A DNA stretch of 32,000 bases from Lutibacter sp. (GCA_002733665.1 NVWM01000005.1:11727-43726); one strand, 5' to 3'; shown: positions 22,258 to 25,287, counted from the stretch's first letter. A program made the numbers and translations. The notes: generated by a model not told the origin, from the sequence alone.

Positions 22258-25200
22258 ATGAACTATAACTCAATAAAAATATCGATTCAACAAGCAGAAA
22301 AAATTCTTTTTGATATATATAATATTAAAGGAACTTTATCTGAATTACCTGGAGAAGTGGATTTTAATTTTAGAGTTAAAATCAAAAATGAAGAAGGCTA
22401 TATTTTAAAAATATCACGTCCAAATGAAAATGAAAATTATTTAGATTTTCAGCAAAATCTTTTACAGCATGTTGAAAGCAGCGGTAAAAATCTAATTGCT
22501 CCAAAAGTAATAAAAGATAAAAATGGAAATACAGTTTCTGAAATTCTAGATAGTGATAGTAAAAAGCGAAAAATTAGGTTATTAACTTGGATTTCAGGAA
22601 GGGTTTGGAGTAGTGTCAATCCACAATTAGACAATTTACGCTTTAGTTTAGGAGAACAATGTGGTTTATTAACACAAGCTTTACAGGGATTTGACCATCA
22701 AGAAGCACATAGAGAATTTGTTTGGGATGTTGCACAATCACTTTGGACAAAAGAGCATTTACATTTATTTTCTTCAGAAGAAAAAGAAATACTTTCTACT
22801 TTTCAACATCAGTTTGAAACCTCTCAAAACACGTATTCAAAACTCCGAAAAGCAGTAGTTCATAATGATGCAAATGATAATAACGTTATTGTTTCTGAAG
22901 ATTTATTACATCCAACTGTAAAAGCAGCGATTGATTATGGTGATGCCTTGTATACTCAAGTGATAAACGACCTTGCTATTAGTTGTGCGTATTGTATTAT
23001 GCATCACAACGACCCTTTAGACGCTGCACTACCAATTGTTAAAGGTTATCATACTACTTTTCCTTTACAGGAAGAGGAATTGTCTCATTTGTATATTGCT
23101 ATTGCCATGCGATTGGTAGTTTCTGTAACCAAGTCTGCCATAAATAAAATTGAAGAACCAGATAATGAATATTTACTGATTAGTGAGAAACCTGCTTGGG
23201 AATTACTCAAGAAATGGCATACTATTCACCCAGATTTTGCAGAATATAGTTTTAGAGAAGTATGTGGATTTTCAGCACATCCAAATCAAGACGTGTTTGA
23301 AAATTGGACTTCAAAACAACAGTTTCTACTTTCAGATATATTTTCAAGTATTTCTAATAACGAAGCACATTCTTTAGATTTAAGTGTCTCTAGTAAATGG
23401 ATTGGACATGAAGAAGAGTTTAATGATTTAGACGTATTCCAGTTTAAAATCAATCAACTTCAAAAAACAATTCCAACTAAAATAATTGCAGGAGGATATT
23501 TAGAACCACGTGCTTTATATACTTCCACAGCCTATGATAAGATAGGAAACAAAGGAAGAGAAAGCAGAAGTATTCATTTAGGAATTGATTATTGGTTACC
23601 AACACACACTCCTATTCATACACTTTTAGACGGTGAAGTAGTTATTGCTGTGAATGATGAAGGAGATAAAGAATATGGTGGATTAGTTGTATTAAAACAT
23701 AGGGTTGAAGGGTTTGAGTTTTACACTTTATATGGTCATTTAAGTATTACATCTGCCACAAAACATAAGACTGGAGATCTTATCAAAAAAGGAGCCAAAA
23801 TTGCAGAATTAGGAAGCCCTTCTGAAAACGGAAATTGGGCATCTCATCTTCATTTTCAAGTGCTATTATCCCTTTTTGATTATACTTCAGATTTTCCTGG
23901 AGTTACCTATTATAGTCAAATAGATGTTTGGAAAAGCATTTGCCCAAATCCTAATTTATTATTTAAATCAAAATCTCTACAGCATAGTGATACTATTTCT
24001 AATGAAGAATTAATTAACTATCGAAAACAACATTTAGGGAAGAGTTTAAGTCTTCAATATAAAACTCCTATTAAAATGGTTCGTGGTGCAGGTCAATATT
24101 TAATGGATCAATATGGACGCAAATATTTAGATACTGTAAACAATGTTGCCCATGTAGGACATGAAAATTACAATGTTGTTAAGGCAGGACAAGAACAAAT
24201 GGCGCTTATCAATACCAATTCACGCTATTTACATGACAATATTAACGCTTTAGCAAAAGAACTTATAGAAACATTACCTCCTGAATTAAACGTTTTACAT
24301 TTTGTGAATTCTGGAAGTGAAGCCAATGAATTGGCGATACGAATGGTAAAAGCGGTTACTGGAGAAAAAGATATAATTGCTAGTGAAATTGGCTATCATG
24401 GAAACGCAAACATGTGTATTGATATCAGTTCATATAAATTTGATAGTAAAGGTGGAAAAGGTGCACCAGAGCACACTCATATTTTTCCACTACCATATGC
24501 TTTTAGAGGTAAATATCGAGGTGAAAATACTGCTGATAAATATGCAGAAGAAGTTCAAAAACAAATCGACATTATTCATAAAAAAGGACGTGATGTAGGT
24601 GCATTTATTATAGAACCAATAATTAGTTGTGGTGGACAAATAGAATTGCCTGAGGGTTTTCTAGAGAAAGCTTATAAATCAGTCCGAAAAGTTGGTGGTT
24701 TATGTATTTCTGATGAAGTTCAAGTAGGATGTGGTCGTTTGGGTAAGACGTTTTGGGGATTTCAGTTACACAATGTTGTACCAGATATTGTGACTATTGG
24801 AAAACCTTTAGGAAACGGACATCCGATTGCAGCAGTTGCATGTACTCAAGAAGTTGCTAATAAATTTGCAAACGGAATGGAATATTTTAACACTTTTGGA
24901 GGAAATCCTGTTTCCTGTGCAATTGCAACTGAAGTTTTGAGAACAGTTAAACGAGACAAACTACAAGAAAATGCACTCGAAGTTGGTGAGTTTTTAAAAT
25001 CTGAATTAAAACAACTTTCCAAAGAATTTCCAATTATTGGAGATGTTCGCGGTCAAGGATTATTTTTAGGAATTGAATTGGTAGATTCAGAAATGAATCC
25101 GTTAGCAAAACAAACCGATTATTTAGCAAATAGAATGAAAAATCATGGTATTTTAATGAGTACTGACGGTCCAGATCATAATGTGCTAAAAATAAAACCT

Positions 25201-25287
25201 CCTATTATCTTCACTAAAGAAAATGCTGAGGAGTTAATTTATTATTTGAAAAAAATATTTACTGAAGATTACATAACATACAACTAA
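22258..25287 (+). CDS. Tri-domain fusion: APH/hydroxylysine-kinase-like kinase + M23 metallopeptidase domain + class-III PLP enzyme of the AGXT2L (phospho-lyase) type
   Basis: Kinase: [13 protein letters not shown] (HxDxxxxN) and IDYGDA. M23: HLGID (His440/Asp444) and HLHFQ (His530/His532). PLP domain: [35 protein letters not shown], and [17 protein letters not shown] with the Schiff-base Lys at residue 849 (nt 24802-24804). No signal peptide. I chose the start at ATG 22258, 1 nt after the GH63-like stop; the 22198 start would overlap the upstream gene by 59 nt. Confidence 0.85.

Follow-up and report, generated by a model that had tools for sequence, protein, structure and literature searches.

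The question raised by a 32,000-nucleotide stretch of DNA from Lutibacter sp. (GCA_002733665.1 NVWM01000005.1:11727-43726; hereafter the window, meaning this stretch at its full length) is which reactions would be carried out, and upon which substrate, by the product of a single gene that joins an APH-type kinase domain, a Peptidase M23 domain and a class III pyridoxal phosphate (PLP) enzyme domain in one polypeptide (Table 1). The analysis described here suggests that this fusion protein is probably a cytoplasmic kinase and phospho-lyase, that 5-hydroxylysine (Hyl) is its most likely substrate, and that it would perform the last step in the salvage, by Flavobacteriaceae, of the glucose- and galactose-bearing hydroxylysine of collagen (Glc-α1,2-Gal-β-Hyl). 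The architecture of the fusion is already catalogued, as the NCBIfam family PRK06148, and is not new; the new part is the conserved operon context around this known family.

Initial examination of the gene focused on whether it is genuine and where it begins. An open frame extends from position 22198 to 25287 on the plus strand in the list of open reading frames (ORFs) of the window, and yields 1009 amino acids when read from the ATG at 22258; the longer ORF from 22198 was considered and ruled out, as homologues begin at the position of the residues MNYN. The G+C content of the window is approximately 30%, which places an open frame of 1009 codons far beyond chance. The databases contain the identical protein (P0001; 100% identity and coverage), derived from a metagenome-assembled genome of Lutibacter sp., and uninterrupted ORFs of 1007-1015 amino acids are found in more than 200 database proteins, including proteins encoded on complete chromosomes. 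Among marine Flavobacteriaceae, no fewer than 80 species have single-chain homologues sharing 66-83% identity, and homologues of about 38-39% identity, similarly composed of one chain, are encoded on megaplasmids of the Rhizobiales.

Pfam recognizes APH at residues 27-253 (E 1.9e-18), Peptidase_M23 at residues 439-535 (E 4.6e-15, 56 bits against a cut-off of 28.7) and Aminotran_3 at residues 603-1000 (E 3.3e-78), and this order is maintained on one chain in the fusion and in all 240 of the homologues listed. An earlier note, prepared from the sequence alone, had described three domains with intact signature residues, and each motif that it quoted is indeed present in the translation. In an alignment of 33 fusion sequences drawn from the Flavobacteriaceae and the Rhizobiales, with identities down to 38%, all three active sites are invariant. 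Along its entire length (residues 6-1003 against model positions 9-1010) the fusion matches PRK06148 (NF004799), a model of 1015 positions named 'hypothetical protein', with a score of 1126.1 bits. Bacterial fusions of this kind, in which an APH-type kinase is joined to an AGXT2L-type enzyme, are said to have been called 'bi- or tri-functional' by Veiga-da-Cunha et al., writing in J Biol Chem in 2012, and to have provided the clue to the functions of human HYKK, PHYKPL and ETNPPL. The fusion is presumably cytoplasmic, as it carries no signal peptide. A full-length AlphaFold model was obtained with a mean predicted local distance difference test (pLDDT) score of 77.8 and a predicted template modelling score of 0.59, values at which the geometry between the domains is not reliable and offers no argument either way on a channel linking the active sites.

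With respect to the kinase domain, three comparisons uphold the earlier suggestion that it resembles hydroxylysine kinase. Specifically, BLASTP aligned the domain with Papio HYKK at 24% identity over 331 residues (96.7 bits, E 7e-27), profile-profile alignment to HYKK using hhalign returned a probability of 99.9% (E 7e-36, 324 columns), and a profile constructed from eight vertebrate HYKK sequences gave a score of 90.6 bits spanning positions 20-352 of 376. The identity of the human HYKK query was itself checked by database search, where it was 100% identical to one entry (P0394) and 95% identical to a primate 'hydroxylysine kinase'. The residues K51, H202-N-D204-A-N-D-x-N209 and I225-D226-x-G-D229 are invariant across the alignment; they comprise the ATP-binding lysine (K51), the APH catalytic loop HxDxxxxN and the metal-binding aspartate of xDxGD (D226), and H202, D204, N209, D226 and K51 align with HGDLNDHN and LDFGD/LDFDD of HYKK. 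Judged by these alignments, the kinase domain is a true, end-to-end homologue of vertebrate hydroxylysine kinase. The possibility, also raised in the note, that it would cluster instead with homoserine or aminoglycoside kinases finds no support at the sequence level, and the NCBIfam homoserine kinase (ThrB_alt) models score it at 54.7 bits against a cut-off of 271 and at 45.1 bits against a cut-off of 255.9.

Structural comparison of the kinase domain was less specific. When the kinase region was compared by sequence with the PDB, nothing was returned at E<=1, and Foldseek, queried against the PDB with an AlphaFold model of residues 1-575 (pLDDT 77.6), matched the kinase only to generic small-molecule kinases of the APH fold at 12-18% identity. 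The best of these was homoserine kinase II (2PPQ, 18%), followed by amicoumacin kinase, aminopropanol kinase (6EF6) and NahK, and aminoglycoside phosphotransferases were also present among the fold matches. The PDB holds no structure of HYKK for comparison. In a representative sequence library, the matches to the kinase domain were mostly metagenomic fragments; those of approximately 760-870 amino acids, which resemble bifunctional forms, are in fact truncated three-domain proteins.

For the C-terminal PLP domain, the best matches of solved structure are phospho-lyases. Human ETNPPL (6TOR; 434 bits, 49% identity) and the phospho-lyase of Arthrobacter (5G4I; 296 bits, 37.5% identity) exceed every transaminase in the PDB, the next entries, comprising racemases, dialkylglycine decarboxylase and transaminases, reaching at most 175 bits; human PHYKPL, for which the query was an exact match to NP_699204.1/Q8IUZ5, scores 400 bits at 46% identity. 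Both K849, located within GKPLGNGHP, and D819, the pyridine-N aspartate located within DEVQ, are invariant in the 33 sequences and align with ETNPPL, where the context of the lysine is TMGKPMGNGHP; the AGXT2L-like character that the note had ascribed to GKP(M/L)GNGHP is thus borne out. Many NCBIfam transaminase models also match the domain, with scores of 180-265 bits that all fall far below their curated cut-offs. By these measures of similarity, the domain is phospho-lyase-like, far above any transaminase. ETNPPL and PHYKPL are vertebrate paralogues to which the bacterial domain is an outgroup, and for this reason its near-equal distance from the two is expected and offers no guide to specificity.

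Between the two catalytic ends lies the M23 domain, in which H440-x3-D444, H494 and H530-x-H532 are invariant. On alignment with Staphylococcus aureus LytM (2B44), these residues coincide with its zinc ligands and catalytic histidines, found there within HYGVD, MH and HVHFQ. The secreted or cell-envelope location usual for M23 peptidases was not found for this protein, which has no signal peptide and in which the domain is internal to a chain whose kinase requires cytoplasmic nucleoside triphosphate. The domain shows the fold and active site of M23 but very probably does not fulfill the usual cell-wall (peptidoglycan) role. On pSymB of Sinorhizobium meliloti, two genes away from a three-domain fusion, there is a 975-amino acid paralogue of the PRK06149 type (L083:13223-16153, minus strand) that retains the APH and class III PLP domains but has a middle region devoid of recognizable M23 motifs. 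By analogy with this paralogue, the M23 domain is probably not required for kinase and lyase chemistry; it may either trim hydroxylysine-containing collagen peptides or constitute a zinc-binding scaffold.

Support for hydroxylysine as the substrate can be found in the genes that surround the fusion. The genes encoding a mutarotase, a glycoside hydrolase family 63 (GH63) α-glucosidase, the fusion, a GH2 β-galactosidase and a sodium:solute symporter follow one another with gaps of 0-2 nt and one stop/start overlap, an arrangement indicating that they form one operon; 1 nt separates the GH63 stop codon from the ATG of the fusion, and the stop codon of the fusion overlaps the GH2 ATG (TAATG). Lipoprotein signals are present on both glycosidases and absent from the fusion. 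Together with the SusC, SusD and GntR-type sensor-regulator genes nearby, the GH63 and GH2 genes give the window the full composition of a SusCD utilization locus. Glc-α1,2-Gal is reportedly the disaccharide preferred by E. coli YgjK, as determined by Miyazaki et al. in 2013. The GH63 enzyme of the window is related to YgjK with an E value of 2e-71 and conserves the catalytic YgjK residues D324, D501 and E727. YgjK accommodates galactose in subsite +1 (PMC7263609).

This context is not peculiar to one genome. The earlier note had regarded a SusCD glycan locus as an atypical setting for such an enzyme, a view contradicted by a survey of 80 related Flavobacteriaceae loci (±10 kb around the fusion), in which glycosidase genes prove to be a conserved part of the family's surroundings: GH63 occurs in 53, nearly always directly upstream of the fusion, GH2 in 50, directly downstream, and both in 45, usually with the fusion directly between them. 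The divergent SusC/SusD arrangement with carbohydrate-active enzymes is seen in 19 of the 80. Similarly, hydroxyproline (Hyp)-catabolic genes are present in 39 loci, and include those for 4-Hyp epimerase, D-amino-acid dehydrogenase, a protein resembling dihydrodipicolinate synthase (DHDPS), aldehyde dehydrogenase, and a pair encoding 3-Hyp dehydratase and Δ1-pyrroline-2-carboxylate (Pyr2C) reductase. This pair stands directly upstream of GH63 or of the fusion in about 25-35 loci. Proline-specific peptidases (S37/S28, prolidase, aminopeptidase P, M20) are found in 41 loci. By individual class, the counts are 34 for the proline-racemase family, which is represented by two paralogues, one of them a 4-hydroxyproline epimerase according to NCBIfam (583 bits against a cut-off of 376); 26 for FAD-dependent D-amino-acid dehydrogenase; 25 for OCD/μ-crystallin reductase; 24 for S37/S28 peptidase; 22 for galactokinase; 19 for prolidase; 18 for aminopeptidase P; 15 each for GalT and aldehyde dehydrogenase; and 8 for the DHDPS-like protein. 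At least one collagen-related class lies near the fusion in 70 of the 80 loci, and in most loci that lack the glycosidases the 4-Hyp cluster takes their place. Taken together, the gene neighborhood strengthens the earlier proposal that 5-hydroxylysine is the most plausible substrate.

Collagen hydroxylysine bears Glc-α1,2-Gal-β-O-Hyl on its 5-hydroxyl group (PMC8626586), and the genes of the window can be ordered into a pathway for the use of this unit. SusC and SusD would import the glycopeptide, from which the YgjK-type GH63 lipoprotein would take off glucose and the GH2 lipoprotein would take off galactose, unmasking the 5-hydroxyl needed by the kinase. The mutarotase and the symporter would pass the freed sugars to metabolism, Leloir genes being close by in related genomes. 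The N-terminal HYKK-like kinase would then phosphorylate a vicinal amino alcohol on its hydroxyl group, the likeliest target being the 5-hydroxyl of free 5-hydroxy-L-lysine. From the O-phospho intermediate so formed, the C-terminal PLP domain would eliminate phosphate and ammonia, which in the case of hydroxylysine would give 2-aminoadipate semialdehyde. As the glycan sits on the very 5-hydroxyl that the kinase would use, an α-glucosidase, a β-galactosidase and a kinase/phospho-lyase would make up a chemically complete sequence. We infer, rather than observe, the substrate, the order of the reactions, their cellular locations and any channeling between domains. The existence of a bacterial pathway for Glc-Gal-Hyl salvage, considered alone and with no claim for a catalytic M23 domain, is judged to have a little better than an even chance; the fuller proposal, in which M23 contributes a third activity that frees hydroxylysine from collagen peptides and thereby turns the fusion into a three-step assembly line, is regarded as doubtful.

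Comparison with known systems reveals both similarities and differences. The vertebrate hydroxylysine kinase HYKK (AGPHD1, EC 2.7.1.81) and the 5-phosphohydroxy-L-lysine phospho-lyase PHYKPL (AGXT2L2, EC 4.2.3.134), which together break down hydroxylysine, are homologous to the two catalytic ends of the fusion and share its predicted chemistry, namely phosphorylation followed by PLP-dependent elimination of phosphate and ammonia. They are, however, two separate proteins without M23, whereas in the window both catalytic ends belong to a single chain, are separated by an M23 domain whose zinc site is intact, and are encoded in an operon with glycosidases. Human ETNPPL (AGXT2L1, EC 4.2.3.2, 6TOR) and the phospho-lyase of Arthrobacter aurescens (5G4I/5G4J), the best matches of solved structure, share GKP(L/M)GNGHP with the PLP domain of the window, yet unlike the fusion these enzymes stand alone, have no fused kinase and act upon O-phosphoethanolamine. 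Among the PRK06148 (NF004799) and PRK06149 (NF004800) fusions encoded on megaplasmids of Sinorhizobium and Shinella, those of the PRK06148 type share the three-domain order and the invariant active sites; unlike the window, their loci have Lrp/AsnC regulators and amino-acid ABC transporters nearby and contain no GH63, GH2 or SusCD genes. The role proposed here for GH63, the removal of α1,2-linked glucose from Glc-Gal-Hyl, is the one performed in animals by PGGHG, the human form of which is protein-glucosylgalactosylhydroxylysine glucosidase (PMC8626586). PGGHG belongs to GH65, a glycoside hydrolase family different from that of the window enzyme, whose activity on Glc-Gal-Hyl is a prediction. 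Finally, bacterial Hyp clusters, composed of 4-Hyp epimerase, D-Hyp dehydrogenase, Δ1-pyrroline-4-hydroxy-2-carboxylate (Pyr4H2C) deaminase and α-ketoglutaric semialdehyde (KGSA) dehydrogenase, or of trans-3-Hyp dehydratase and Pyr2C reductase, likewise handle a modified amino acid specific to collagen, but their chemistry is unrelated to that of the fusion, to which they are tied by gene neighborhood only.

Several observations weigh against this reading. The score against PRK06148 lies 2 bits under the curated cut-off of 1128, in spite of full coverage, and no characterized bacterial member of the fusion family was found in the literature. Identity to HYKK is only 24%, and the nearest solved folds are those of homoserine kinase II, amicoumacin kinase and aminopropanol kinase. 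As identity is slightly higher to ETNPPL than to PHYKPL, the PLP domain by itself does not favor phosphohydroxylysine. Neither a hydroxylysine transporter nor a 2-aminoadipate-semialdehyde dehydrogenase was identified in the window, and none of the collagen-related neighbors accompanies the fusion in 10 of the 80 Flavobacteriaceae loci. In the Rhizobiales, the fusions adjoin Lrp regulators and amino-acid ABC transporters and are without glycosidases, a context implying that the substrate of the family need not be derived from collagen everywhere.

Such considerations leave room for other substrates. It could be argued that the protein acts on some other hydroxy-amino compound, released from a different Glc/Gal glycoconjugate or resembling an amino-alcohol antibiotic, and that the collagen context is coincidental: APH-fold kinases phosphorylate a wide range of amino-alcohol antibiotics, the fold matches include both amicoumacin kinase and aminoglycoside phosphotransferases, and the Rhizobiales members occur in soil and plant settings alongside amino-acid transporters. 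That reading is unlikely given that three independent collagen themes, 3-/4-Hyp catabolism, X-Pro peptidases and the glycosidase pair, recur across 70 of 80 species, and that the closest characterized homologues of both catalytic ends are the human enzymes of the hydroxylysine pathway. A kinase and phospho-lyase for ethanolamine or a small amino alcohol such as 1-amino-2-propanol, yielding acetaldehyde or a ketone and unrelated to hydroxylysine, would accord with the PLP domain being marginally nearer ETNPPL than PHYKPL, with the deposition of the characterized bacterial homologue 5G4I as a phospho-lyase, and with the presence of aminopropanol kinase 6EF6 among the structural neighbors of the kinase domain. 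The first of these points is silent on specificity, however, for the reason of paralogy given above; the kinase is homologous from end to end to HYKK, whereas no PDB kinase, 6EF6 included, is detected by sequence at E<=1; and the conserved neighbors are collagen-linked (Glc-Gal-Hyl-type glycosidases, Hyp catabolism, Pro-peptidases) rather than genes of ethanolamine or phospholipid metabolism. An enzyme of this kind thus appears quite improbable.

Still less credence can be given to the view that the protein is an ordinary class III aminotransferase with accessory domains, even though database names such as 'aminotransferase class III-fold PLP-dependent enzyme', 'peptidase M23' and '4-aminobutyrate aminotransferase-like/RdoA kinase' would suggest it and NCBIfam transaminase models do match the C-terminal domain at the scores given above. 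None of those matches comes near its cut-off, phospho-lyases exceed every PDB transaminase by more than 120 bits, and a fused kinase with an invariant active site makes sense for a phospho-lyase and not for a transaminase, such that this explanation is highly improbable. As for the notion that three separate genes were merged into one by an assembly error or, as anticipated in the earlier note, by a frameshift, nothing was found in its favor: the same ORF of 1007-1015 amino acids recurs in more than 200 proteins and 80 genomes and a curated full-length family model exists, which together exclude an artefact for all practical purposes.

Should hydroxylysine be the substrate, as is probable, the conserved operon would represent a concrete route by which marine Flavobacteriaceae, among them fish pathogens like Tenacibaculum and sponge isolates, use Glc-Gal-hydroxylysine, a collagen fragment that animals excrete unmetabolized. 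If true, the proposal would add glyco-amino-acids to the substrates of SusCD loci as a new class, would supply the first physiological substrate and role for bacterial YgjK-type GH63 enzymes, and would explain the marine mineralization of the collagen-specific residues Hyl, 3-Hyp and 4-Hyp. It would also raise the question of what job is done, inside a metabolic enzyme, by an M23 domain that is cytoplasmic and, by its sequence, catalytically intact. No described bacterial Glc-Gal-Hyl locus was found in the literature, the coverage of which was incomplete, making this weak evidence of novelty.

Table 1. Domains of the fusion protein and features of its neighborhood, in window coordinates
Feature	Coordinates	Strand	Remark
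APH-M23-class III PLP fusion gene	22258-25287	+	single 1009-aa ORF; without signal peptide
Hydroxylysine-kinase-like domain, aa 1-366	22258-23355	+	homology to HYKK
Peptidase M23 (LytM-type) domain, about aa 405-575	23470-23982	+	Pfam; conserved zinc site
ETNPPL/PHYKPL-like class III PLP domain, aa 576-1009	23983-25284	+	phospho-lyase homology
Schiff-base Lys849	24802-24804	+	aligned with ETNPPL
Aldose 1-epimerase (mutarotase)	19376-20272	+	
GH63 YgjK-type α-glucosidase	20274-22256	+	lipoprotein-type signal peptide
GH2 LacZ-type β-galactosidase	25287-28403	+	lipoprotein-type signal peptide
Sodium:solute symporter, PRK10484 type	28406-29992	+	795 bits against cut-off 401
Regulator, GntR helix-turn-helix and periplasmic-binding-protein-like sugar-sensor domain	18320-19351	+	true start probably at an ATG about 11 codons downstream
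Tandem 23-nt direct repeat ACCAG(T/C)ACCTACCAGTTT	18281-18326	+	between divergent SusC gene and GntR-type regulator
SusC-like TonB-dependent transporter	15057-18152	-	divergent from operon
SusD-like protein	13512-15044	-	divergent from operon
FG-GAP/ASPIC (CRTAC1-like) lipoprotein, 1119 aa	10097-13456	-	downstream of SusD
Proline-racemase-family protein, Cys/Thr pair (MCGH, DRCPTGSG)	8819-9889	+	best match trans-3-hydroxy-L-proline dehydratase
Pyr2C/Pip2C (Δ1-pyrroline-2-carboxylate/piperideine-2-carboxylate) reductase	7864-8826	+	371 bits against cut-off 322

Among the other features of the window, the tandem repeat, with its pattern ACCAGT-N4-ACCAGT, is a candidate operator. Within the window its core, ACCTACCAGT, is confined to this site (0 further occurrences expected). 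Thirteen related loci have the regulator gene, and in 8 of them the repeat immediately precedes it, with AC.AGTACCTACCAGT invariant. By homology, the reductase and proline-racemase-family genes at 7864-9889 constitute a two-gene route from trans-3-hydroxy-L-proline to L-proline; in the window, the SusCD block stands between this pair and the operon. Of the 80 related loci, only L044 was found to contain a homologue of the FG-GAP/ASPIC lipoprotein.

Downstream of the fusion and on the opposite strand, Lutibacter litoralis and two further genomes (L051, L056 and L073) carry a small conserved cluster of four ORF families consisting of a second sodium:solute symporter, a protein with an Ala_racemase_N domain and, as assigned by eye, a MarR-type regulator and a GNAT acetyltransferase; this cluster could represent an alternative uptake or racemization module for the amino-acid substrate. 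Elsewhere in the window, a 203-amino acid ORF (5727-6338, plus strand) has an N-terminal DEAD-box helicase domain only, without Helicase_C; the gene may be truncated, or the domain may exist by itself. A 63-amino acid ORF resembling cold-shock proteins by eye (7128-7319, minus strand), located in the gap before the 3-Hyp pair, and a CAP/SCP-domain protein further upstream (2584-3087, plus strand) both appear to be unrelated to the system.

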